Assembly (NCBI GenBank): GCA_046329105.1
Contig: JAXLVH010000004.1
Span: 29,938-93,937, forward strand
Source of the DNA: Flavobacteriales bacterium
GTDB lineage: Bacteria; Bacteroidota; Bacteroidia; Flavobacteriales_F; PHOS-HE28
Length of the DNA stretch: 64,000 nucleotides
Reading direction: 5' to 3'
A model generated the notes under the pieces. It made no database searches. It was not told where the DNA came from and saw only the letters and a list, made by a program, of their open reading frames with translations. Shown here one piece after another: positions 3,307 to 34,428 of this stretch; the stretch's first letter is position 1; the number at the start of each line of letters is the position of its first letter. The position numbers were made by a program, and so were the translations under genes.

Positions 3307-4932
3307 TTATCGGATGATCAGCCGCTCGTTCGTCAACACGCCGCCGCTCGTGCAGCGCACCACATACGCACCGGGCTGGAGCGATGTGGCATCCACCTGC
3401 ACCAGTCCTGCGTTGGCATTGCGCGTGGTGTTCAACACGGAGCGTGCAGAGGCATCGATCACAGTGATCACCACGTAGGAGCTGCCGTTCGACCGTAGCG
3501 TGAACACACCGTCCGTTGGGTTCGGGTAGATCGCCGGTTGGCCGGAAGACAATGTGCTCTCCGCGAGCCCAACGCCGCTGCCGAGACCTTCCACCACGCA
3601 CAGGTCGTAGCCTGGTTCTGCATATGCGTACTGGCTGCGGAAGTCATACACCCGGAAGTAGTAGGTATCCCCAACGGTCAGCCCTGTGGCGTACATGTCA
3701 TCGGCTACACCCGATCCGCCCACATCCCCGCAAGCGATGGAGGTGAGTAAACCGCAGGCACCGGAGAACAGTTCCATCACGATGTCCATGTTGCCGTGCG
3801 GGGCACCGCCCACGGTCATATCCGGCGCTGTGGCGGTGAAGCTGTACCATACGTCATCCCCGGCATCGCCAGTGAACGAGCCGCAGGTGACCGCAACCAG
3901 GCTCTGCGTGGCGCACGGGTTCGTGAAGTAGGTCGGGTCGCAGGTCGGTTGTGCGGTCAACGGAATGGCCCCGTCGCATTCATCGTTCGGCGCTTGATCA
4001 GAGCCACACGCGGCGGCCGAGACGACCAGGGTATAAGGGCCGATCGGTCCGGCAACGACGGGGAAATAGTATGTGCCCGCGGGTAATTGGGGAAAGCACA
4101 GCGTGAAGTTGCCATCGCCACAGGACGTGCTGTCATAAGAGCTCACCTCCACCGCCGTTGAGGGCGGGCAACTCGAGTACAAGAGGATCCAGAAACCGTC
4201 CCAGGCAGGCGTGCTCCCGCAATAGCTGAGGTGCACATCCGCGCAAGCGGCCAGTGTAAAAGCCTCCCAAGCGGAGGTATAGCCCAATCCTTCCGAATCC
4301 GTTGCTCCCGTATTATCCCCGTTGAATGTGATCGTTCCACCGATGGAGAGGGCCTGTTCGATCGCGCCGGAGCAGAGGTCGTTCACCGGAGGTGCTGGTG
4401 TGGTGTTCCCGACCGTTACGCACAAGGTGAAATCCCCGCCTACGCCATAGTCGGTATTGGAATGTACGCGGATCCAATAGTCCACACCGGGCTCCACATC
4501 CAAGGCGATGGGGCCGGGTGGAGCGATAGCGCAGAGGAGTTCATCGCCGCCGCAGGCATCGTATACGGCCAGCACGCGGTCGGTCATTCCAGCGCCGGGC
4601 GTCAGGGTGATCGTTACCGTATCCGCTGCGCCACTGTTGAACGTGTACCACACGTCCAACCAAGTGCCGGTGTTATCGCACGAGGGAATGCCACCGTCCT
4701 GGGTCGCTTCCGCGTTATTCCCGCTCACCGGCGAAGCGCAATCCGTCGTGACGGTGATCGCTTCGGCGTTGGCGCAATCGTCGTTCGCGGGTGCGTTGCC
4801 GCGGTCGGGGTGGTGCGCCGCGAGGTGCATCGGCTTGGCGGGCGCGGTGAGACGCGTCCAAGCGCCCCGATGCTGAGCGTTCCCGTGCAGCGCGATGAGC
4901 AGGGTAGCGATGAGGAGTACGATGTGTTTCAT
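3307..4932 (-). CDS. T9SS cargo protein with three PPC (pre-peptidase C-terminal)-like beta-sandwich repeats
   Basis: 541 aa. Signal peptide. Repeats of PANDDCANAEAITV...DVWYTF...YWIRV...GDFTL pattern. C-terminal type-A T9SS sorting domain (AIYPNPTDGVFTL...LIIR). Confidence 0.75.
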   Translation of the reverse strand: MKHIVLLIATLLIALHGNAQHRGAWTRLTAPAKPMHLAAHHPDRGNAPANDDCANAEAITVTTDCASPVSGNNAEATQDGGIPSCDNTGTWLDVWYTFNSGAADTVTITLTPGAGMTDRVLAVYDACGGDELLCAIAPPGPIALDVEPGVDYWIRVHSNTDYGVGGDFTLCVTVGNTTPAPPVNDLCSGAIEQALSIGGTITFNGDNTGATDSEGLGYTSAWEAFTLAACADVHLSYCGSTPAWDGFWILLYSSCPPSTAVEVSSYDSTSCGDGNFTLCFPQLPAGTYYFPVVAGPIGPYTLVVSAAACGSDQAPNDECDGAIPLTAQPTCDPTYFTNPCATQSLVAVTCGSFTGDAGDDVWYSFTATAPDMTVGGAPHGNMDIVMELFSGACGLLTSIACGDVGGSGVADDMYATGLTVGDTYYFRVYDFRSQYAYAEPGYDLCVVEGLGSGVGLAESTLSSGQPAIYPNPTDGVFTLRSNGSSYVVITVIDASARSVLNTTRNANAGLVQVDATSLQPGAYVVRCTSGGVLTNERLIIR

Positions 4933-7187: not shown

Positions 7188-8822
7188 TCAATGGATGACC
7201 AAACGGGCCGAACGAGCGCTCCGTGGATCGCTCACCTTCACCGTGTAAAGACCTTTCGCCAGCATCCCGCCTTCCGCCAGTTGCACGGTCCCACTGGCAT
7301 CGGCACGCCCGGTCGTGTTGATCACGGTCCTTCCTGCGGCATCGATCACCGCCAGCGAGAAGGTGGAACCGGGCGATCCAGTGCGGATGCTGAACGATCC
7401 CGCTGCCGGATTGGGGAACACATCGAGCGCGGGCAGGCCCCCAGCGGCTTCCTCGATCCCGATCGCGATGCCGAAGCCCTCGGCCACACAAAGCGAATAA
7501 CCGGCATCATCGTAGGGCGTGTTGGAGTAGCCATTGTACACCCGCACGTAGTAGGTGTTCCCCGGCACCATCCCGTTCAAGGGGAGTTGCACAGGATCAC
7601 CATCGAAACCATTGGCGCAGGCCGTGGAGACCAAGGCGCCGCAAACGCCCGCGTACAATTCCATGACGGCGCCGAACTGCGTGCTGTTCGGGAACACGCC
7701 GATGGTCATCAGCGACTGGGTGGCGACGAAGGAGTACCAGACGTCGTCGGAGGCATCACCGAGCCCATCGGCACAACCCGGTTGTATGGTGGAGGCCGAT
7801 GCGCAGGTGGGCGAGAAGGCCACGGGAGCGCAGGTCGCAGAGACCGGCACCGTGATGGCTCCCGCACAGTCGTCGTTCGCCGGTTGATGTGAGCCGACCG
7901 GATCGGCTTTCACATGCAGGGTGTAGGTCCCGGGCGCATCGCCGTTGGTCACGGCATAGTAGTAGGTGCCCGCCGGCAACGCCGGATAGCACAACGTGGG
8001 CCGGTTCCCCGTGCAGTCGGTGATGTTCTCATAGCCCGCGTAGCGGCGCTGGGCCAGATCTGCCGGGCAGGTGAAGTACAGTGCGCGGAAGTAGTACGGG
8101 AAGAAGGCCGCGCTCCCGCAGAGGTCGATCGTCACATCGGCCGCCTCGCTCAAGGTGAAGGCATGCCACACCGAAGGCAGCGGCAGGCCCTCGGTGTTCT
8201 GCGCGTTGGTGGAGTTGCCCGTGAAGGTGATGGTAGTGCCCATGGGCAGGGCTTGCATCGACGCGTTCGTGCACAGATCGTTCGCGGGAACATTCACCAG
8301 AGCAAGGTCCTGAACGCACAGCTCGAAGTCGCCTGCATCGCCGTAGTCAGGATTGGAGAAGACACGCAGGAAGTAGGTGGTGGAAGGCGTGAGGTACTCA
8401 GCCGTAGGGCCGGAAGGCTGGATCCGGCAGGCCACTTCGGTGCCACTGCATGCACCTTCGAGGAGCACGTAGGCCCAATCCGTCATGTTGGCCTCCGGTG
8501 TCAACGTGATGATCACGGTATCGGCCGTGCCGGTGGTGAACGTGTACCATACATCGGGTTCCGTGGATCCGGGATCATCGCAGGATGGCACGATGCCGTC
8601 CATGGTGGCGCCTGCGTTCGTCCCGTTCAAAGCCCCGGTGCAGTCGGCACCAAGCGTGATCGGTGCGGCATTGGCGCAATCGTCGTTGGCGGGTGGACCA
8701 CCGCGCTCAGGGCTGCTTCCCGAAGGCCGTTCGATCGGCGTCCCATAGGGAGACGGGAGAGGTCGTTGCGCCAGAAGTGTCAGGCTGCAGGAGATCAGGA
8801 GGAGGGCGATGAGGTGGCGCAT
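7188..8822 (-). CDS. T9SS cargo protein with PPC-like repeats (paralog of 3307-4932)
   Basis: 544 aa. Same repeat architecture (PANDDCANAAPITLGADCTG..., DVWYTF..., YFLRVFSN...) and C-terminal T9SS CTD (DVFPNPAAGSFSIRT...RLVIH). Confidence 0.75.
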   Translation of the reverse strand: MRHLIALLLISCSLTLLAQRPLPSPYGTPIERPSGSSPERGGPPANDDCANAAPITLGADCTGALNGTNAGATMDGIVPSCDDPGSTEPDVWYTFTTGTADTVIITLTPEANMTDWAYVLLEGACSGTEVACRIQPSGPTAEYLTPSTTYFLRVFSNPDYGDAGDFELCVQDLALVNVPANDLCTNASMQALPMGTTITFTGNSTNAQNTEGLPLPSVWHAFTLSEAADVTIDLCGSAAFFPYYFRALYFTCPADLAQRRYAGYENITDCTGNRPTLCYPALPAGTYYYAVTNGDAPGTYTLHVKADPVGSHQPANDDCAGAITVPVSATCAPVAFSPTCASASTIQPGCADGLGDASDDVWYSFVATQSLMTIGVFPNSTQFGAVMELYAGVCGALVSTACANGFDGDPVQLPLNGMVPGNTYYVRVYNGYSNTPYDDAGYSLCVAEGFGIAIGIEEAAGGLPALDVFPNPAAGSFSIRTGSPGSTFSLAVIDAAGRTVINTTGRADASGTVQLAEGGMLAKGLYTVKVSDPRSARSARLVIH

Positions 8823-8963
8823 GTGTCGGGACTATGGGCTGCAAACGTGCTCATGCCCGCACTGCACGGAAACCCCATGAATGGGGGGCCACCCAATCAT
8901 GGGGTTTTCCCTGAGGTCACAGCGCCCGATCCTTGCATCGGACGATCATTCCTTCCATCACGC

Positions 8964-10964
8964 ATGCGGATCCCGCGCACCCTTGCCATCATCGGATGCC
9001 TCCTCATGGTCCACGCAGCGTTCAGCGGAACGATTGACAGCGTGGAGGCGCGCTTGCGCACCGAGGGCCGCACCACAACGCGCGTGGACCTGCTCATCCG
9101 CAAGGCCATGCAGCACATCAATGACCCGGAGTTGGACGTGAGCCCCATTTGGAAGGAAGCGCATCAGTTGGCCGAAGAGCTGAAGTATGAACGCGGCCAG
9201 GCATACGCGCCCATGGGGCCGGCCGTTGAGCGCTGGCATGCTGGCGAACATGCCGCTGCGATCGACAGCATGAAGACGTGCATCGAACGCCTCGACGCCC
9301 TCGGCGTGGACCAGGAGTTTGTTTCGCCATTGGGATGGCTGCGCGAGGTGTACAGTTCCGCCGGCATGCAACAGGAGCGACTGCGTTACTACACCCAAGC
9401 CGTGGATCGTTACCGGAAGGGACCGCTGCGCATGAGCCTGGGCACCAGCTACCATGCGCTTGCCGGATACTACACGCGCATCCGGCAGTACGGTGCGGCC
9501 ATCGAACACTACATCCGCGCCCGCGAGTGCTTTCCAACGCGGCCGGATATCGCATGCAACGAGACCATGGTGATCGGCTGGGCCTACGAGCAATGGGGCA
9601 ATCCCGCGCGTGCGATACCCTTCATCCAGGAGGCGCTGCCATGCCTGACCGCACAGGGCGATACCGGCTTGCTGGCGGACTGCCACATGCGCCTGGCCAC
9701 CGATCGGTTGGCCTTGGGCGATACGCTGGGTGCGCTGCGCGATCTTGAGCGCTCGAGGTCCCTCGTGGCCAACTTGGACAGTTCCAACCCGTTGTTCCGG
9801 TCCAAGTACATTCCCATGCTCGTACAACTGGGCCGGATCGAAGAGGCGGGGATCCAGTATGCGCGGATGATCCAGGAATGCCAGCGCGAAGAGGTGCCAT
9901 TGAACTCGTTCAATGGCGCTTGCGAGCCGGACTACTGCGGGTACATCCTCTACAGCGCGACAGGCCGCCTCGCACAAGCCGATAGCAGTTTGCGCGAGGC
10001 GCTGACCAAGGCGCTTCGGATCAACGATCTGCCACTGGTGCTCAAGTACCGCAAGGCCTTGATGGAACGGCTTTGGACGTCCGGTGATGCGGCCGGATCG
10101 GCGCGGGAGGCCGCGTTGTATGTGCGCATGAACGACTCCCTGCAAGCCGTGGCCAACGCCGATGCCGTGGCGGCTTACGAAGGGCTGGTGAAGGAACGGG
10201 AGAGCGCCCTGGAGATCCAGCGCCAACAAGCGCGGGTGAAGCAACAACGCGTGGTGTTGCTCGGCATTGCCTTCGTGCTGCTGCTCCTTGCGGCGCTCGC
10301 CTGGTCCGTGTACAAGGGCAAGAAGCGCTCGGATGAATTGCTGCTCAACATCCTTCCCGCGGAGGTCGCCAAGGAACTGAAGGCGACCGGGGCCAGCGCC
10401 GCGCGCCACATCGAACAGGCCACCATCCTCTTCACCGATTTCAAAGGCTTCACCGAGGCGAGCGAGCTGCTGACACCGCAGGAGCTGGTGGAAGAGCTGG
10501 ACACCTGCTTCAAGGCCTTCGATGCCATCATCACCGCGCGTGGCATCGAGAAGATCAAGACCATCGGTGATGCGTACATGGCGGCCGGTGGCCTGCCCCG
10601 CAAAGTGGCCAGCGGCGTGGGGGATGTGGTGCAGGCCGCGCTCGACATGCAGGACTTCATGCTGAGGCGGAAGACCGAACGCACCGCGCTGGGGAGGCCC
10701 GCGTTCGACATGCGGGTTGGCGTGCATACCGGCCCCGTGGTCGCGGGCATCGTCGGCGTGAAGAAGTTCCAGTACGACATCTGGGGCGATACGGTGAACA
10801 CCGCCAGCCGCATGGAATCCTCCGGCGAAGTGGGCCGCGTGAACATCAGCGGAAGCACCTACCGCGAGATCGCCGCGCAGCCCGGCTTGGTCTTCACCCC
10901 GCGCGGAAAGGTGCAGGCCAAGGGCAAAGGGGAACTGGAGATGTACTTTGTCCAACGCAATTGA
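8964..10964 (+). CDS. Membrane-anchored class III adenylate cyclase with periplasmic TPR-like sensor domain
   Basis: Start chosen at MRIPRTLAIIGCLLMVHAAFS (signal peptide). The upstream part of ORF 7914-10964 overlaps the opposite-strand gene. Order is TPR-like region, coiled coil, TM helix (VVLLGIAFVLLLLAALAW), cyclase domain with FTDFKGFT, EKIKTIGDAYM, QYDIWGDTVNTASRME. Lys and Asp at purine-specifying positions suggest ATP. Confidence 0.8.
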   Translation: MRIPRTLAIIGCLLMVHAAFSGTIDSVEARLRTEGRTTTRVDLLIRKAMQHINDPELDVSPIWKEAHQLAEELKYERGQAYAPMGPAVERWHAGEHAAAIDSMKTCIERLDALGVDQEFVSPLGWLREVYSSAGMQQERLRYYTQAVDRYRKGPLRMSLGTSYHALAGYYTRIRQYGAAIEHYIRARECFPTRPDIACNETMVIGWAYEQWGNPARAIPFIQEALPCLTAQGDTGLLADCHMRLATDRLALGDTLGALRDLERSRSLVANLDSSNPLFRSKYIPMLVQLGRIEEAGIQYARMIQECQREEVPLNSFNGACEPDYCGYILYSATGRLAQADSSLREALTKALRINDLPLVLKYRKALMERLWTSGDAAGSAREAALYVRMNDSLQAVANADAVAAYEGLVKERESALEIQRQQARVKQQRVVLLGIAFVLLLLAALAWSVYKGKKRSDELLLNILPAEVAKELKATGASAARHIEQATILFTDFKGFTEASELLTPQELVEELDTCFKAFDAIITARGIEKIKTIGDAYMAAGGLPRKVASGVGDVVQAALDMQDFMLRRKTERTALGRPAFDMRVGVHTGPVVAGIVGVKKFQYDIWGDTVNTASRMESSGEVGRVNISGSTYREIAAQPGLVFTPRGKVQAKGKGELEMYFVQRN

Positions 10965-14444: not shown

Positions 14445-15737
14445 ATGCAAGCCGGGGTCCTGCGCATGGAGAAAGACGGCACCATCCGGGAGCCGACCGC
14501 GACCGAGACGGAAGTGCTCGCCGTGCATGACCAGTTCTGGCAGTGCTATGCGCGTCGCGACCTCGATGGGCGCTTCGCTGTGGCGGCGGATGACATCACC
14601 TTCTTCGGTACCGCGCTGCACGAGCGCGCCGTTGGCAAAGCGCAATACCGGGCGTTCAATGAGAAGGGCGTGGAACAGTATCCGCATGCGTTCACCATCG
14701 AGTACATCTGGAAGGAAGTGCGTATTTGGCACGAAACCGCCTGGGTGGAGGGCGATACGTACTGGACCATGGGCAGTGGGCCCGAAGCCACGCGTGACCT
14801 CTTGCGGCAGACCACCATCCTGAAGCGCGTTGCCGGCAATTGGCTGGTGACGCACGTACATGGCAGCGACCCCGACTACCGGCTGCGCGAGGGCGAGTAC
14901 ATGACCTACGGCGACATCCACACCCGCAACAAGGACCTGGAGCGGGAGGTGATGCAGCGCACCGAGGAACTGCGCGCCGAGAAGAAGCGCAGCGATGCCC
15001 TGCTGCTGAACATCCTGCCGGAGGAAGTGGCCGAAGAGTTGAAGGCCAAGGGCGAAGCCGACGCCAAGCTCATCGACCAGGTCACCATCCTCTTCACCGA
15101 CTTCAAGGGGTTCACGGCCATGAGCGAGCATATGGCTCCTCGTGACCTGGTACGCGACCTGAACGAGTGCTTCAGCGCCTTCGACCGCATCTGCGAAAAG
15201 CACAACATAGAGAAGATCAAGACCATCGGTGATGCATACATGGCCGTCGGCGGCTTGCCGATGGCCAACACCACCCATGCCGTGGATGCGATCAACGCCG
15301 CGCTGGAAATTCGCGACTTCATTGCTGAAGGCAGAGCGAAGAAGGCCGCGGCGGGTCTGCCCTGGTTCGAGATCCGCATCGGCGTGCACTCGGGACCGGT
15401 GGTGGCGGGGATCGTGGGCGTGAAGAAGTTCCAGTACGACATCTGGGGCGATACGGTGAACACCGCCAGCCGGATGGAGAGCAGCGGCGAAGTGGGACAG
15501 GTGAACATCAGTGAGGCGACGTATGCGTTGGTGAATGACGCGAGGAAGGTGAATGGCGAATGGTCAATAGTGAATGGGGGATCCACCCATTCACCAACTC
15601 CCGATCACCATTCGCCCGCAACGGCCCATTCACCATTCACCAACTCCCATTCACCCGCATTCGCATTCACCCCGCGCGGAAAAGTGCAGGCGAAGGGCAA
15701 GGGGGAACTGGAGATGTACTTCGTGAGCAGGGCATGA
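14445..15737 (+). CDS. Cytoplasmic SnoaL/NTF2-like domain - coiled coil - class III adenylate cyclase
   Basis: 430 aa. N-terminal SnoaL-like fold. Cyclase motifs identical to neighbours. C-terminal low-complexity insert (NGEWSIVNGGSTHSPTPDHHSPATAHSPFTNSHSPAFA) encoded by a palindromic repeat. Confidence 0.8.
   Translation: MQAGVLRMEKDGTIREPTATETEVLAVHDQFWQCYARRDLDGRFAVAADDITFFGTALHERAVGKAQYRAFNEKGVEQYPHAFTIEYIWKEVRIWHETAWVEGDTYWTMGSGPEATRDLLRQTTILKRVAGNWLVTHVHGSDPDYRLREGEYMTYGDIHTRNKDLEREVMQRTEELRAEKKRSDALLLNILPEEVAEELKAKGEADAKLIDQVTILFTDFKGFTAMSEHMAPRDLVRDLNECFSAFDRICEKHNIEKIKTIGDAYMAVGGLPMANTTHAVDAINAALEIRDFIAEGRAKKAAAGLPWFEIRIGVHSGPVVAGIVGVKKFQYDIWGDTVNTASRMESSGEVGQVNISEATYALVNDARKVNGEWSIVNGGSTHSPTPDHHSPATAHSPFTNSHSPAFAFTPRGKVQAKGKGELEMYFVSRA
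15549..15671. repeat. ~120-bp palindromic (hairpin-forming) element inserted in frame in cyclase gene, copy 1
   Basis: GTGAATGGCGAATGGTCAATAGTGAATGGGGGATCCACCCATTCACC...CCATTCGCC...CCCATTCACC. GAATGG-rich left arm and CCATTC-rich right arm. Perfect core palindrome GTGAATGGGGGATCCACCCATTCAC. Confidence 0.8.
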
Positions 15738-17815
15738 GATATCCGCTTCCGATCCTCATGGTGCTGGCCCTGGTCGTGAACGTACACGGCCAGGACCGGA
15801 TCCTTGATTCGCTGCGGAACGCGCTTGACACCACGCGGCAGGACACCGTGCAGCTACGGACCCTGGTGTCGATCTCGCAGATCGCCTCCCTATCGAGCCG
15901 GGACACCGCCTACGCGCGGCCGATGGCGCGCATGATCGCAAAGCTGGAGCAGGACCCGCACCCGTCCGTCAAGGCCGTGGCCGAGGAAGCGAAGTTCCAT
16001 TGGCTGCTCTGGCGCGGTGCAATGCGACTGCGTGTTTCCGACTATCGCGGCGCCGTGCGTCTCTACAATGAGGCTGGACGACTGGCCACGGAGCGCGCCG
16101 ACACCGCACGCATCCTGGACTACGAAGTGGCCATGGGTGACCTCTATGGCCGCATCAATGATACCGTTAACGGCCTGCGATGGGGCTATCGTGCGTTCGA
16201 ACACGCGCTGATGTTGGGCGACAGCGCGTTCGCGGTGCGGATCCTTCTCGGGCTGGGCGAGTCCGACACCACGCATGCCCGCTTCCGCTCGTCGCTTGAC
16301 TTCATTGATGCGTATGCTTCGACGGCCCGATGGCAGCACGAACCCTCCTACCACATGTTCCGCGGACGGCTCCTGCAAACACATGGAGAACACGCGCAGG
16401 CCATCGCCGAAATGGAACTGGCCGACAGTCTTTTCCAGGGCACCGGGGATAGGAGGAACGCTCTGAACGCATGGTTCCTGGGCGGGGCGTACCAAAGCGC
16501 TGGTCGTTCTAGCGATGCCATAGCCGCGTTCCATAATTCCCTCAAAGCCTCCAAGCACTTCGGGATCAGAGGATGGCACGCCGGCTGCGCGCTGGACCTC
16601 GGAAAGGAACTGCGGAATACGGGTGATCCGGCAGGTGCTGAAGCGGCATGGCGGGATGCCTTGGAACAGGCACGTCTCGGGAATTTCCCGGATCACCTGA
16701 GCAACGCGCTGGATCATTTGAAGGACTTGTACACTGAACAACGACGCTATCGCGAAGCATTGGAGCTCACCGCGGAATGGCTCGCGCTGAAGGACAGTTC
16801 GAACGCCGAGGAAGCGCGCAGGGAATTGCTCCAACTCGAGTTCGGAGCGGAACAACGCGCGGACAGTTTGCAGTTCGCGCTCGAACGCGAGGAGGCATCG
16901 CGACGGCTCGCTAAGGAGCGCACGCAACGGAAGGTGCTTATCGGCTTTGGTGCTTTCGCCCTCGTCTTCGCCGCCGTGGACTACCGCCGCCGCCGCCGCA
17001 TCAAGAAGGAACATGCACGCAGCGAGGCCCTGCTGCTCAACATCCTGCCGCAGGAAGTCGCCACCGAACTGAAGGCGAAAGGCCACGCCGACGCGAAGCA
17101 CTTCGAAAAGGTCACCATCCTCTTCACCGATTTCAAAGGATTCACCTCGGTGAGTGAACAGCTATCTCCTGCGGAACTGGTCGAGGAGCTGAACACCTGC
17201 TTCAAGGCGTTCGACGGGATCATCACCGCACGTGGCATTGAGAAGATCAAGACCATTGGTGATGCCTACATGTGCGCGGGCGGACTGCCCACACCCAATA
17301 CCACGCACGCCACCGATGTGATCAACGCCGCATTCGAAATGCGTGACTTCATCGCTGAAGGCAAAGCGCACAAGATCGCGGCAAGCCTCCCCTACTTCGA
17401 GATCAGGATCGGTATCCACACCGGTCCTGTGGTGGCGGGCATCGTGGGCGTGAAGAAGTTCCAGTACGACATCTGGGGCGATACGGTGAACACGGCCAGC
17501 CGCATGGAGAGCAGTGGTGAGGTGGGGCAAGTGAACATCAGCGAGGCGACGTATGCGTTGGTGAAGGATGTGAAGAAGGTGAGGGAGGTGAATGGCGAAT
17601 GGTCAATAGTGAATGGGGGATCCACCCATTCACCAACTCCCGATCACCATTCGCCCGCAACGGCCCATTCACCATTCACCAACTCCCATTCACCCGCATT
17701 CGCATTCACTCCGCGCGGAAAAGTGCAGGCCAAGGGCAAGGGGGAGATGGAGATGTACTTCGTGCAGAGGTCATCGGGAACGTCCGACAGCGCACCGACA
17801 TCTACTGGTACATGA
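15734..17815 (+). CDS. Membrane-anchored class III adenylate cyclase with periplasmic TPR-like sensor (tandem paralog 1)
   Basis: Start MRYPLPILMVLALVVNVHGQ overlaps the upstream stop (ATGA). TPR-like region, TM (VLIGFGAFALVFAAV), cyclase domain. Same palindromic in-frame insert near the C-terminus. Confidence 0.8.
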   Translation: MRYPLPILMVLALVVNVHGQDRILDSLRNALDTTRQDTVQLRTLVSISQIASLSSRDTAYARPMARMIAKLEQDPHPSVKAVAEEAKFHWLLWRGAMRLRVSDYRGAVRLYNEAGRLATERADTARILDYEVAMGDLYGRINDTVNGLRWGYRAFEHALMLGDSAFAVRILLGLGESDTTHARFRSSLDFIDAYASTARWQHEPSYHMFRGRLLQTHGEHAQAIAEMELADSLFQGTGDRRNALNAWFLGGAYQSAGRSSDAIAAFHNSLKASKHFGIRGWHAGCALDLGKELRNTGDPAGAEAAWRDALEQARLGNFPDHLSNALDHLKDLYTEQRRYREALELTAEWLALKDSSNAEEARRELLQLEFGAEQRADSLQFALEREEASRRLAKERTQRKVLIGFGAFALVFAAVDYRRRRRIKKEHARSEALLLNILPQEVATELKAKGHADAKHFEKVTILFTDFKGFTSVSEQLSPAELVEELNTCFKAFDGIITARGIEKIKTIGDAYMCAGGLPTPNTTHATDVINAAFEMRDFIAEGKAHKIAASLPYFEIRIGIHTGPVVAGIVGVKKFQYDIWGDTVNTASRMESSGEVGQVNISEATYALVKDVKKVREVNGEWSIVNGGSTHSPTPDHHSPATAHSPFTNSHSPAFAFTPRGKVQAKGKGEMEMYFVQRSSGTSDSAPTSTGT
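17588..17710. repeat. Palindromic in-frame element, copy 2
   Basis: Near-identical DNA to copy 1, at the same position in the paralogous cyclase. Confidence 0.8.
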
Positions 17816-19848
17816 ACCTCCGTCGCACGGCCCTTTTCATATTGCTCTTGGCCGCGCAAGCCCACGGCCAGGACCGTGCGCTCGACTCCCTCAGGAGCGC
17901 GCTCGACACCACCAGGCAGGACACCACGCAGCTTCGCACCCTGGTGAGGTTCTCGCAGATCGCCTCCCTCTCCAGCCCCGACACGGTGTACGCCCGGTTC
18001 ATGGCCAGGTTGATCGGCAAGCTGGAACAGGATCCGGCTGCCTCGGTAAGGGCGGTCGCGGAGGAAGCGAAGTTCAATTGGCTCATCTGGAAGGGCCAGA
18101 TGCGGCGGCGTGTATCGGACTATCGCGGCGCCGTGCGCATGTTCGAAGAGGCTGGTCGACTGGCCGAAGCGCGGGCCGACACCGCTCGCCTCCTGGACTA
18201 CGAGATGGAACTGGGTGACCTCTACGGGCGGATCAACGATACGATCACCGGCTTGCGACATGGCTATCGCGCGATGGAATACGCCATTGCGTTGGGCGAT
18301 AGCGCGCTGGCGGCGCGGATCCTTTTCGGTGTGGCCCGCTTCGATACTTCACGCGTCCGCCTCCTTTCATCTCTGGAATACGTCGATGCGTACGCGAAGA
18401 AGGCCCGATGGGAGAACAACGCTGGCTACTACGCCGCTCGTGGATGGATGCTGCAAGCTCACGGTGAACATGACCAGGCCATCGCCAACCTGGAACGGGC
18501 CGATAGCCTGTTGTCGGATCCCGATAGCCGGATGATCGCCCTGTACGCCTGGTTCCTTGGCGAAGCATATCTGAGCGTTGGTCGATCGGATGACGCCATT
18601 GCATCGTTCCGGCGTGCGCTCTCCGCTGCTGAACGCCATGGGATCAATGGATGGCACGCAGGCTGCGCCTTGGCATTGGGTTCCGAACTGAAGAGAACAG
18701 GTGACCAAGCCGGGGCCGAAGCGGCATGGTTGGATGCCTTGGCGCACGCGCGCCTCGGGAATTTCCCGGACCACAAGCTCACCGCGCTGGGCCACTTGAA
18801 AGACCTGTACACGGATCAACACCGCTATCGAGAGGCTTTGGAGACCACGGCACAATGGCTGGTGCTGAAGGACAGCTCGAACGTGGATGAAGCACGCAAG
18901 GACCTGCTACGTCTTGAATTTGGCACCGAGCAACGGGCGGACAGTCTGCAATTTGCACTTGAGCGTCAGGAAGCCTCGCGGGTTGTCGCACAGGAACGTA
19001 CCCGTCGCAACATTTTCCTTTTCTCTGGGATCGGCTTGCTGGCCTTCGGAGTGGTCGTATTCCGCCAGCGCAACCGGATCAGCAAGGCGCGCAAGCGCAG
19101 CGACGAATTGCTGTTGAACATCCTGCCGGAGGAAGTCGCGGAGGAATTGAAGGACACCGGTGCCGCACAAGCAAAACACTTCGATACGGCCACCATCCTC
19201 TTCACCGACTTCAAGGGTTTTACCCAGTTGAGCGAGAAGGTGACACCCGCCGAACTGGTCGCGGAACTGAACACCTGCTTCAAGGAGTTCGATCTGCTCA
19301 TGACCAAGTACCGCATCGAGAAGATCAAGACCATCGGCGACGCCTACATGGCCGCCGGTGGATTGCCCGATCCGCAGCATGGCTCACCGGCCGACGTAGT
19401 GCGCGCAGCCTTGGAGATGCAGGACTTCATGAAGCGCCATAAGGCCGAACGCGAAGCCGCTGGCAAGCCGTTCTTCGAGATGCGCGTGGGCATCCACACC
19501 GGCCCCGTAGTCGCCGGCATTGTGGGCGTGAAGAAATTCCAGTACGACATCTGGGGCGATACGGTGAACACGGCCAGCCGCATGGAGAGCAGCGGCGAGG
19601 TAGGGCAGGTCAATATCAGCGAGGCGACCTATGCGTTGGTGAAGGATGCGAAGAAGGTGAATGGCGAATGGTCAATAGTGAATGGGGGATCCACCCATTC
19701 ACCAACTCCCATTCACCATTCGCCCGCAACGGCCCATTCACCATTCACCAACTCCCATTCACCCGCATTCGTATTCACCCCGCGCGGCAAGGTGCAGGCC
19801 AAGGGCAAGGGGGAACTGGAGATGTATTTCGTGGAGCGCAAGGCTTGA
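17812..19848 (+). CDS. Membrane-anchored class III adenylate cyclase with periplasmic TPR-like sensor (tandem paralog 2)
   Basis: Start MNLRRTALFILLLAAQAHGQ overlaps the upstream stop (ATGA). Same architecture and the same in-frame insert. Confidence 0.8.
   Translation: MNLRRTALFILLLAAQAHGQDRALDSLRSALDTTRQDTTQLRTLVRFSQIASLSSPDTVYARFMARLIGKLEQDPAASVRAVAEEAKFNWLIWKGQMRRRVSDYRGAVRMFEEAGRLAEARADTARLLDYEMELGDLYGRINDTITGLRHGYRAMEYAIALGDSALAARILFGVARFDTSRVRLLSSLEYVDAYAKKARWENNAGYYAARGWMLQAHGEHDQAIANLERADSLLSDPDSRMIALYAWFLGEAYLSVGRSDDAIASFRRALSAAERHGINGWHAGCALALGSELKRTGDQAGAEAAWLDALAHARLGNFPDHKLTALGHLKDLYTDQHRYREALETTAQWLVLKDSSNVDEARKDLLRLEFGTEQRADSLQFALERQEASRVVAQERTRRNIFLFSGIGLLAFGVVVFRQRNRISKARKRSDELLLNILPEEVAEELKDTGAAQAKHFDTATILFTDFKGFTQLSEKVTPAELVAELNTCFKEFDLLMTKYRIEKIKTIGDAYMAAGGLPDPQHGSPADVVRAALEMQDFMKRHKAEREAAGKPFFEMRVGIHTGPVVAGIVGVKKFQYDIWGDTVNTASRMESSGEVGQVNISEATYALVKDAKKVNGEWSIVNGGSTHSPTPIHHSPATAHSPFTNSHSPAFVFTPRGKVQAKGKGELEMYFVERKA
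19657..19779. repeat. Palindromic in-frame element, copy 3
   Basis: Near-identical DNA to copies 1 and 2 (one GAT->ATT type difference). Lies just upstream of menA. Confidence 0.8.
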
Positions 19849-19883
19849 AGACGGTCGTGCGCGTTGGTGTTCCTTTGCCCGGC

Positions 19884-23859: not shown

Positions 23860-24200
23860 TCACCCTTGCCACGTTGAGTGACCTTGTCCTGACGAAGGAA
23901 GGGCCGAAGCGCCCATACACTGCCACGCTGAGCCTGCCGAAGCAGTAGCCAATGCCATGCACGCTCCTCTGCAGTGTCACGCTGAGCTTGCCGAAGCGCC
24001 CATGTTCTGTCACGCTGAGCACCTCGAAGTACCACCAGGCAATTGCCGCACTGATTTCAACGGATCGGGTCTGAGCCGTTCTGTGGTGTACAGCGCTTCG
24101 GCGCGCTCAGCGTGACAGCTCATAAAAATCCCCAAAGCTGTGTCACGCTGAGCCTGCCGAAGCGCTACCATACTCCTCACGACTGTCACGCTGAGCGCAT
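23860..24200. repeat. Array of degenerate ~27-bp TGTCACGCTGAGC(N)TGCCGAAGCGC repeats with ~25-110 bp variable spacers (hairpin/REP-like family), locus A
   Basis: At least 6 copies in both orientations. Includes a long imperfect palindrome (TGTCACGCTGAGC...GCTCAGCGTGACA spanning ~24009-24118). Confidence 0.8.
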
Positions 24201-26018: not shown

Positions 26019-26632
26019 GGATCACGCTGAGCGCGTCGAAGCACCACCAAGCAATTGCCGCACTGTTTTCAACGGATCGGGTCTGGACCGTTCTATGGTG
26101 TATTGCGCTTTGGCGCGCTCAGCGTGACAGTTCATAAAGATCCCCAAAGCCGTGTCACGCTGAGCATGCCGAAGCGCTACCCCAATGTCACGCACGCTCC
26201 CCTGCAATGTCACGTGGAGCATGCCGACGCGCTATTCCGATACCGTTCGCTCTCCCATGTGCTGTCACGCTGAGCCTGCCGTAGCGCTACTTCGATGCCT
26301 TGCAAAATCCCAAGCAATGTCACGCTGAGCATGCCGAAGCGCTATCCCGATGTCATGCACGCTCCCCTGCAATGTCACGCTGAGTGCGCCTGTCCTGACA
26401 AAGGAAGGACCGAAGCGCTATTCCGATACCGATCGCTCTCCCATGTTCTGTCACGCTGAGCTTGTCGAACCGGTCCTCGCTTCGCAGTCTTCGCCGCCGC
26501 GAAGCGCTTTTTGCGCCTGCATCGCCTTCGAGTAGCCGCTTCGGCGCAGCAAGGCGCCAGAGCGCTCCGGCGTCGACGCTTGGAGCGCGGAGCGGCTACG
26601 CATAGGCGCGGTCGGCAGGCTCACTATGACAT
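26019..26632. repeat. Array of TGTCACGCTGAGC-family repeats, locus B (about 5 tandem ~55-bp units plus a long terminal hairpin)
   Basis: Units are a 27-bp repeat plus ~28-bp spacer-like segment falling into two related classes. Terminal ~180-bp imperfect palindrome TGTCACGCTGAGCTTGTCGAACCGG...GGCTCACTATGACA. First ~160 bp is a direct repeat of 24010-24169. Confidence 0.8.
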
Positions 26633-33776: not shown

Positions 33777-34090
33777 GAACGGGACCGGCCCGGTCCATGT
33801 GTGCGTTCCGGAACAGGTAAGGGATGAGATGAGGGTGAAGGGTCCGGCCGAAGCCATTGTACCTCCTGCAGTAAAATATACTCGGGTCTGATCGCGCGTT
33901 CCGCATGCGGAATGAAGAATTCTCCGCACTACTTCACCGCGCAGGTCGTTCCGTAGCACCTGCTCCGCAGGTCGTCCTGCAGAAGGATCGGAACGTATCA
34001 TCGGACCACCCCTTATCGTGTATTGGTATAATACCCCTTCGCAATCCAGCATCGTCCGATCGAACCATGAAATCCCATGCTGGATCCGAC

Positions 34091-34281
34091 GAAGCGCTTC
34101 GACGGGCTCAGCGTGACATATTGGATGGCCCCTTACTGCGAAATGGTTTGACCCCTTCACTAGACCTCCGTCCCAATTGCCCGGAGGAATGAATAAGACG
34201 TGTCACGGTGAGCCTGCCGAACCGGTCCCTGCTTCGCCGTAGCGGCTACGCAAAGGCGCGGTCGACGGACTCACCGTGACA
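34091..34281. repeat. TGTCACGCTGAGC-family repeats, locus C: one inverted single copy plus an 81-bp imperfect palindromic hairpin element
   Basis: 34091-34118 is a reverse-oriented copy (GAAGCGCTTCGACGGGCTCAGCGTGACA). 34201-34281 is TGTCACGGTGAGCC...GACTCACCGTGACA with arms complementary, related to the terminal hairpin of locus B. Confidence 0.75.
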
Positions 34282-34428
34282 CGCTGATGGAAGTACGACG
34301 GAGGTTTACTTCCTCCTCCCGGTCGGATCTGTGGACAGGGTGCGCTTGAGGAGGAGGGTTGAAGCGGGAGCCTTGGCCTTGGCGCACCTTTGCTTCCGAG
34401 TATATCCCATTCCCGGAGCAACAGGCTC

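Follow-up and report, generated by a model that had tools for sequence, protein, structure and literature searches.

How does an almost identical palindromic segment come to lie in frame, at the same position of the catalytic domain, in three paralogous cyclase genes that are themselves well diverged? The question is raised by a stretch of 64,000 nucleotides (nt) from a Flavobacteriales bacterium (contig JAXLVH010000004.1), here called the window, whose numbering is used throughout. An earlier note, made from the letters alone, took the segment for an intragenic element of the miniature inverted-repeat transposable element (MITE) or repetitive extragenic palindrome (REP) kind. The best explanation, which we hold with moderate confidence, is that it is a locally generated, intragenic, in-frame inverted heptamer repeat, spread and homogenized by recombination between paralogues and tolerated as a disordered loop. 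The host genes and the copies that they carry are as follows, T1 being one of several types of insert found at this site.

CycA, 14445–15737, forward strand: SnoaL_3 domain and class III cyclase domain, 430 amino acids (aa) (P0076: PF13474, PF00211)
CycB, 15734–17815, forward strand: signal peptide, tetratricopeptide repeat (TPR) region, transmembrane helix and class III cyclase domain (P0004); its ATG overlaps the CycA stop (ATGA)
CycC, 17812–19848, forward strand: CycB-type architecture (P0001); its ATG overlaps the CycB stop
Copy A, 15548–15671, forward strand: type T1, in frame in CycA, peptide VNGEWSIVNGGSTHSPTPDHHSPATAHSPFTNSHSPAFA
Copy B, 17587–17710, forward strand: type T1, in frame in CycB, 1 mismatch to copy A
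Copy C, 19656–19779, forward strand: type T1, in frame in CycC, 3–4 mismatches to copies A and B

The repeat is 124 nt long. Over these positions copies A and B differ at 1, A and C at 3 and B and C at 4, and the peptide of copy C departs from the others by D to I and A to V changes. The 25-mer core GTGAATGGGGGATCCACCCATTCAC occurs three times (0.00 expected), and 16 of the 17 occurrences of CCATTCACC (0.77 expected) fall within the three copies. The repeat is free of stop codons in only two of the six frames. The places and the peptide translation given in the earlier note are confirmed, the coordinates to within 1 nt. Its description of the copies as near-identical in three paralogues can be put more sharply, since the elements are only 0.8–3.2% diverged while the upstream 500 nt differ by 25–30% and the 52-nt tail by 6–10%; the copies are far younger than their hosts. 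T1 copies in the loci L026, L029 and L030 are likewise less diverged than the genes that carry them. The inserts are therefore not simply inherited with the gene duplications.

The hosts have the features of class III cyclases. PF00211 (Guanylate_cyc) is precomputed on P0001, P0004 and P0076, and the best match of the cyclase in the PDB is AC8 (E = 1.8e-56). The motifs FTDFKGFT, KTIGDAYM, YDIWGDTVNTASRMES and KGKGE are present in CycA, CycB and CycC, and with them the metal-binding Asp pair, the Asn/Arg of the transition-state helix, the KGKG Lys and the Lys/Asp specificity pair, whose roles we take to be those of the corresponding residues in mammalian adenylate cyclase structures. In an alignment to solved cyclases the helix SEATYALV precedes the insert, and the strand FxFTPRG that leads to the KGKG loop follows it. 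The earlier note had the right site in the catalytic domain but placed it between the last catalytic β-strands, when it lies between a helix and the penultimate strand. In an AlphaFold2 model of CycA the cyclase domain has predicted local distance difference test (pLDDT) values of 80–95. The insert spans the interval from helix 357–363 to strand 406–416; its first 10 residues form a small β-hairpin, and residues 378–401 fall below 50. The 20 residues downstream (FTPRGKVQAKGKGEMEMYFV) are conserved and in frame in every insert-bearing homologue. Given this tail and the disorder of the modelled insert, the segment is tolerated in proteins that still look functional, in keeping with the earlier note. 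The same note had pointed to a fourth cyclase, CycD (8964–10964), with an intact loop, and the short loop REIAAQPGLVFTPRG is indeed found there; this site folds no better than expected, with z = 0.9 against mononucleotide shuffles and ∼0 against synonymous recoding.

Empty site of CycD, 10857–10919, forward strand: TYREIAAQPGLVFTPRGKVQA

RNA folding of the segment, which the earlier note had proposed, gives a long imperfect hairpin. A 141-nt segment folds as RNA with −50.2 kcal/mol (z = −3.6, none of 200 shuffles as good) and as DNA with −25.6 kcal/mol (z = −2.7). Its parts, as seen in copy A, are these.

Left arm, 15548–15582, forward strand: five degenerate heptamers, GGTGAAT/GGCGAAT/GGTCAAT/AGTGAAT/GGGGGAT
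Central hairpin, 15570–15594, forward strand: 9-base-pair perfect arms GTGAATGGG/CCCATTCAC around GGATCCA
Right arm, 15586–15659, forward strand: 39-nt (13-codon) direct duplication, 15586–15620 and 15625–15659, 74% identical
CycA flank, 15527–15537, forward strand: L-V-N codons GTTGGTGAATG, complementary at 11 of 11 positions to right-arm CATTCACCAAC

Of the 'BamHI-centred perfect palindrome' of the earlier note the central GGATCC stands, but the perfect pairing is that of the two 9-nt arms around the 7-nt spacer. In the outer stem GGTGAATGGCGAATGG is paired with CCATTC(A/G)CC repeats, and the ends form terminal inverted repeats as in a MITE, GGTGAATGGCGAATGG pairing with CCATTCACCATTCACC at 94%. 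Over 13 diverged copies the left arm and the far right end CCATTCACCCGCATTCGCATTCAC are paired in 97% of cells; most pairs are invariant, there are a few double changes, and the covariation is weak. In CycB and CycC the flank is the native GGTGAAGG (V-K-D), which pairs with downstream CCTTCACC-like F-T codons.

The heptameric periodicity is seen directly on matching the sequence with itself. At lags of 7 and 14 nt the left arm of T1 scores 0.71 and 0.71, while the inserts T2 and T4 described below score 0.46 and 0.44, and 0.59 and 0.45, respectively; the whole T1 element scores 0.45, its units being degenerate with one or two mismatches each. Control coding DNA shows only the codon period (lag 3), and T5 is a direct repeat with a period of 15 nt. 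T1 accordingly has the tandem 7-nt units of a heptameric simple sequence repeat (SSR), of the kind known as short tandemly repeated repetitive (STRR) sequences. Variants differ by indels of 6, 9 and 39 nt and larger, with no clean series of ±7 or ±21 nt among them, and it is the 39-nt duplication that distinguishes the long T1 form of the window from the short form of the homologues.

The hairpin was also compared with known structures. There is no U-tract after it at any of the three copies, and the Rfam covariance models return only sub-threshold microRNA-hairpin noise (E = 0.3–1); an intrinsic terminator and a known RNA family were rejected on these grounds. Integron attC-like sites and CRP-type (GTGA…TCAC) sites appear a poor match in core motifs and spacing, and no integrase is in view. 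A sliding-window scan of minimum free energy was confounded by the GC content of 62%, and an explicit search for long stems was used in its place.

The same site was then compared across 118 homologues, the closest of which all come from Flavobacteriales metagenome-assembled genomes (MAGs) and metagenomes. The site is empty in 50 of them; the remainder carry at least five unrelated families of insert, together with 7 short inserts of other kinds.

T1: VNGEW…HSP…, 32 of 118 (T1-like)
T2: VVGSQLSVVG…TTDNQQLTT, 14 of 118
T3: …ASTHRVD…, 7 of 118
T4: LLVDGCSS…TSNNQP, 4 of 118
T5: …TRQPATRQP…, 4 of 118

The earlier note had allowed that the insert might be an ancestral linker present in all orthologues; the 50 empty sites show that it is not. 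With several unrelated insert families and many empty sites, the cyclase site is a hypervariable repeat hot spot rather than the seat of a single element. The DNA of T1, T2 and T4 consists of inverted 7-nt arrays with the units GTGAATG, GTTGTCG and GTTGTTG, and their hairpins also recruit the conserved flanks GGTGAAGG and CCTTCACC. These three hairpins exceed synonymous recodings of their peptides in stability (z between −2 and −4), which does not hold for T3, T5 and most empty sites. The T3 and L032 inserts are only partly palindromic, and those of T3, T5 and L032 are not significant hairpins.

One homologue is out of frame. At L037 3960–4080 (P0096) a T2-type insert has a frameshift, with its left arm truncated and the conserved tail in another frame; the gene is a pseudogene or contains an assembly error at a T5 run. 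Phase variation by ±7-nt slippage was rejected, the arrays being short (two to five degenerate units) and this sole frameshift perhaps being a sequencing error.

The type of insert is almost uncorrelated with the tree of the catalytic domains. At least 49 changes of type are required on the tree of the 118 sequences, the distance within types equals that between types, and the nearest neighbour has the same type in 47 cases of 118, where 32 are expected by chance. The comparison of orthologues suggested in the earlier note gives the clearest instance: among CycC orthologues 88–90% identical in their DNA, that of the window has T1, that of L029 a T2-like insert and that of L030 none. Neighbouring paralogues often share a type, as do the three T1 copies of the window, the three T4 copies of L031 and the three inserts of L032. 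Recombination within the arrays is also evident. The window and the near-identical strain L026 are ∼100% identical on both sides of a block that is only 40–90% identical between them.

Replaced block, 17221–19864, forward strand: the last ∼590 nt of CycB and all of CycC, 2.6 kb, unlike L026

In this block, cyclase sequence has recently been replaced by recombination between strains. The 16–22% divergence between the CycB elements of L026 and the window lies within it, and conversion limited to the element was rejected as its cause. In L029 there is an A/B hybrid cyclase gene, and in the low-coverage contigs L023 and L025 the paralogue switches in or beside the element, by recombination or assembly chimerism. 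A breakpoint specific to the hairpin is not claimed for L029 and L030, where the break can be placed only between the site and the stop, the tail being conserved in all paralogues.

Remnants of cyclase tails are seen elsewhere in the family. Just past the real stop, degenerate second tails (EMEMYFVKRNLGEG*, EVEMHFVHR) are found at L028 5330–5450 and L037 ∼4150–4200, that of L028 being preceded by a different heptamer hairpin with the units GTGAGGT/GTGAAGT; these second copies are probably footprints of 3′-end replacement. The MAG arrays L031 and L032 contain split cyclases, ORFs (open reading frames) with only the TPR region or only the cyclase domain, and cyclase fragments of 40 and 98 aa, which fits frequent rearrangement of the cyclase family.

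None of the searches made for the element turned up a copy beyond the cyclase site. A metagenome-wide scan for GAATGGGGGATCCACCCATTC found five copies on four contigs, all five at this site. An exhaustive phmmer search with the 39-aa peptide against 1.84 billion (1.84e9) protein representatives gave four cyclase clusters and four unrelated repeat proteins. In the GTDB representative genomes, a set that does not contain the source genome, the pattern GTGAATGGGN7CCCATTCAC has 21 matches, all of them chance or terminator hairpins. A six-frame search of a concatenated word index gave 79 protein candidates with three cyclase fragments; it is insensitive to low complexity and counts as weak evidence only. 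Hairpins were surveyed over 234 kb, comprising the window and nine related Flavobacteriales loci (∼170 kb). Long-stem hairpins are present at 14 cyclase sites, and no hairpin like T1, T2 or T4 occurs outside cyclase sites in the 234 kb. Two further hairpins lie with what is left of a cyclase: a T1 whose upstream cyclase is truncated by an insertion sequence (IS) fragment in L030, and a hairpin beside a remnant of a cyclase tail. The other long stems belong to an unrelated REP-like family or are a few terminator-like or isolated stems. In L030 a truncated DDE_Tnp_1 fragment (887–1714) abuts the left end of T1 (1715–1840) within 2–3 nt, and the upstream half of the cyclase is missing. The fragment is the sole IS fragment seen near a copy, and its ends are unlike those of T1; this IS was rejected as a parent of the element.

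There is no target-site duplication at the junctions, the flanks …GCGAAGAAG on the left and TTCACCCCG on the right having no common direct repeat, and by comparison with an empty orthologue the codons GTGACGGGTCTCACG (EPGLT) are replaced in the filled allele, neither split nor duplicated. All copies found are at the cyclase site, and none of them is dispersed to unrelated loci in the manner of MITEs; being intragenic, and found only in cyclases, it is also unlike REPs and their paired form (REPIN), which are extragenic and number tens to hundreds of copies. These observations do not support the MITE or REP-like reading of the earlier note, and neither do the arms, whose degenerate tandem units of 7 nt resemble codons of the native flanks, or the at least five unrelated insert families at the site. 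Appearance alone is not enough to class an in-frame palindrome as a MITE.

A local origin would account for these properties as follows. The element would have (GTGAATG)n as its left arm and (CATTCAC)n as its right, set in what may be the sole insertion-tolerant loop of a large, paralogue-rich class III adenylate cyclase family of high-GC Flavobacteriales. The starting point would be an empty loop bordered by native codons that form a short inverted repeat, V-K-D (GGTGAAGG) and T-F-T (CCTTCACC). Slippage of the polymerase over heptamers together with template switching between the arms could then extend it to a hairpin-forming insert. Survival would be limited to stop-free variants with a length divisible by three, since the protein needs the downstream strands that hold the KGKG motif. 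Gene conversion or unequal crossing-over would copy and homogenize the inserts between paralogues, because their flanks are highly conserved among many paralogues; such homologous recombination would explain how copies 97–99% identical lie in catalytic domains that are 25–30% diverged. The encoded His/Pro/Ser-rich peptide would be a disordered surface loop, essentially a passenger. The confinement to this site, the 7-nt periodicity, the hairpin, the disorder, the hypervariability, the uncoupling of insert type from gene phylogeny and the recombination in the array are observed; we infer the origin by slippage and template switching, the spread by gene conversion and the neutrality.

Several observations point to this course of events. 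The T1 unit GTGAATG matches GTGAAGG, the native V-K-D flank, in all but 1 nt; the L-V codons themselves open the array, without a seam, in L035 and several homologues (TYRLVNGE…), and the right end of T1 merges into native TTCACC repeats. The long T1 form of the window is the short form plus the 39-nt duplication. Between the L028 copies at 7409 and 9796 four clustered changes give a perfect stem of 23/23, and a K to N codon change in CycA completes the 11/11 match to the opposite arm. Heptamer repeats are over-represented in bacteria, which has been ascribed to polymerase slippage, and inverted arrays have been noted (PMC4692102). Template switching is documented for the creation and maintenance of hairpins (PMC8794818), and in coding sequence (PMC8604942). 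Arrays of (GGTGAAT)n are also found, as ordinary repeats, in unrelated viral contigs (120 matches, 40 with at least three units), two of them inverted and hairpin-forming (L064, z = −10). Hairpins of the form (GTGAATG)n…(CATTCAC)n are seen in a Chitinophagaceae MAG (L012 4866–4912), intergenic and right after a stop codon, and in high-GC viral contigs (L064 10374–10505 and L078 1–81), between convergent ORFs, which suggests a repeated origin of inverted heptamer arrays.

Other observations weigh against a local origin with homogenization. Near-identity stops sharply at the borders of the element, whose ends are paired inverted repeats, as for a discrete mobile element. That several unrelated families of hairpin share exactly one site could indicate targeting instead of local origin, and the resemblance of the T2 and T4 units to the flank (GTTGGTG) is weak. 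The L028 inserts are more diverged than their domains, so homogenization is not general. The census of copies took in no complete genome, and the source genome may have copies elsewhere. Selection for structure would produce the recoding scores of T1, T2 and T4 as well as templating would.

The first of the competing explanations is a site-specific mobile palindromic element, like a REP/REPIN, a palindrome-associated transposable element (PATE) or a MITE, whose hairpin is recognized by a trans-acting enzyme and which repeatedly enters the hairpin-prone cyclase loop, the other insert families being sister elements with a common target. It would account for near-identical, sharply bounded copies in strongly diverged hosts, for conserved and paired terminal arms, for a MITE-like size of 124 nt, for the independence of insert type from the host-gene tree and for several hairpin families at one site, and in-frame palindromic elements have a precedent in Rickettsia, as outlined in PMC10969869. 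Yet the searches made found copies at the cyclase site alone, there is no target-site duplication, and the codons of the empty site are replaced and not split. The left junction moreover varies by subfamily (KD[AV][KR]K followed by VNGEW, LV by NGE, and KLQSPASAGD by VNGEW), the arms repeat the flank in degenerate form, there is a continuous range of lengths and sequences in place of discrete copies, the IS fragment beside the L030 T1 lacks matching ends, and the T5 and L032 inserts are not hairpins. We regard such an element as unlikely. Selection for the hairpin itself, as RNA or DNA, is a slightly weaker candidate, and a doubtful one: it might serve messenger RNA protection or processing in packed cyclase operons, ribosome pausing, or as a fragile or recombinogenic site that shuffles cyclase genes. 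The stability of T1, T2 and T4 relative to recodings and to shuffles fits this, as do the convergence of unrelated sequences on hairpins at one site, the arm pairing, which is maintained in 97% of cells and includes a few double changes, the overlap of the genes (ATGA) without intergenic space, and the recombination breakpoints and hybrid genes of the array. But 50 of the 118 homologues do without an insert, as does CycD in the window itself, and the T3, T5 and L032 inserts are not significant hairpins; covariation is weak with most pairs invariant, a U-tract and an Rfam family match are lacking, and a templating mutational mechanism yields an equal codon bias without selection.

Selection could alternatively act upon the peptide, as a flexible His/Pro/Ser-rich loop with HSP motifs that might, for instance, bind metal, dock a partner or regulate the cyclase. 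The inserts always keep the frame, HSPxxxHSP motifs recur among T1 variants and the model has a small β-hairpin in the first 10 residues. Other paralogues, however, have wholly different peptides (those of T2 to T5) or none, the choice of codons maximizes the complementarity of the arms, the model has pLDDT <50, and the composition follows directly from the translated heptamer and its complement, all of which makes this very improbable. An assembly artefact from a collapsed or chimeric repeat, raised in the earlier note, is hardly credible. The low-coverage contigs L023 and L025, where the head belongs to one paralogue and the tail to another and the change falls in or next to the element, could be taken that way. 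The three genes with their elements are, however, arranged alike, at ∼100% identity, in a JGI contig of 131.8 kb from an independent assembly and in an ENA contig, variants are found in NCBI MAGs, and all reading frames are intact; in all, elements lie at the same cyclase site in the independent assemblies L026, L027, L029, L030 and L022–L025.

A bolder possibility, which we also consider doubtful, is that the loop specifically receives or generates functional hairpins, either selfish cassettes that promote recombination and are driven by conversion or intracistronic RNA structures. As cassettes, the palindromic loops would evade heteroduplex repair, spread among dozens of paralogues and drive the shuffling of sensor and cyclase modules; as RNA, the hairpins would set the stability or translation of single cistrons in overlapping cyclase operons.

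Some further features of the window and its relatives may be recorded. Each element contains an ATG (15560, 17599 and 19668/19682; 1725 in L030) in frame with the downstream gene, which gives rise to spurious long ORFs (751, 749 and 714 aa) and makes gene models in public records too long (P0003, for example, has 711 aa). CycB and CycC truly start at the ATGs of their signal peptides, 15734 and 17812. A hairpin AAACCCCATGAATGGGGGG/CCACCCAATCATGGGGTTT (8870–8907) upstream of CycD, in the divergent promoter region, has a core TGAATGGGGGGCCACCCAATCA that resembles the core of T1. An intergenic REP-like hairpin family, GTCACGCTGAGC…GCCGAAGCGC, has 15 matches against 0.7 expected, in three clusters, and its copy number and arrangement differ from those in the near-identical strain L026. 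The family is unrelated to the cyclase insert and itself has the extragenic location of REPs.

REP-like clusters, window 23900–24200, 26020–26470 and 34076–34283: intergenic

On the explanation preferred here, the locus is a clear case of repeat dynamics of a non-coding type (heptamer slippage, hairpin templating and paralogue conversion) operating in a catalytic domain without destroying the enzyme. A single position carries dozens of unrelated loop peptides across a gene family, which bears on how proteins gain surface segments, and palindromes of selfish appearance can arise and spread without a transposase. There is a practical consequence for annotation, as the ATG within the element makes downstream gene models over-long. 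If the hairpins are functional or recombinogenic, the rapid turnover of cyclase sensor arrays in wastewater Flavobacteriales would be explained; if the loop is a dedicated site, it would represent a new class of family-specific, transposase-free 'homing' palindrome within coding DNA.

Each of the known systems nearest to the cyclase insert shares some of its features. Inside a gene, the closest parallel is offered by STRR units in the RNase P RNA gene of heterocystous cyanobacteria, though this is an RNA gene. Heptameric SSRs, such as cyanobacterial STRR, GGGAATC in Xanthomonas and GGGGAYT in Nostoc, are likewise built from tandem 7-nt units, sometimes in inverted stem-loop arrays, and they vary in length and sequence between close relatives, which is ascribed to polymerase slippage (PMC4692102). 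The known ones are intergenic and often long and perfect, whereas T1 is short, degenerate, stop-free and in frame within an ORF. With REP/REPIN and MITEs the insert has in common its size, its imperfect hairpin, its inverted terminal arms and the high identity of its copies; it differs in not being extragenic, in the absence of dispersed copies from the searches made and in having no target-site duplication. The clustered changes that perfect the complementarity of the arms (L028 7409 versus 9796, and K to N in CycA) are like those of template-switch, or quasi-palindrome, mutagenesis, but here they go with repeat expansion and paralogue exchange and with inserts of 60–190 nt, not small corrections. 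Rickettsia palindromic elements (RPEs) are, in the outline given by PMC10969869 (citing Ogata et al. 2000), ∼100–150 bp long and translated in frame in functional proteins, where the fold is thought to tolerate them. So described, they resemble T1 as in-frame palindromic repeats of functional ORFs with near-identical copies in non-identical hosts. By the same outline RPEs are dispersed over many unrelated genes and the intergenic DNA of one genome, while T1 is found only in cyclases, in one loop of one gene family, with 7-nt units related to the flank and at a site that it has in common with unrelated inserts; the likeness is one of description. The cyclase insert combines features of RPEs with those of intergenic heptamer repeats, restricted to one family and one site.

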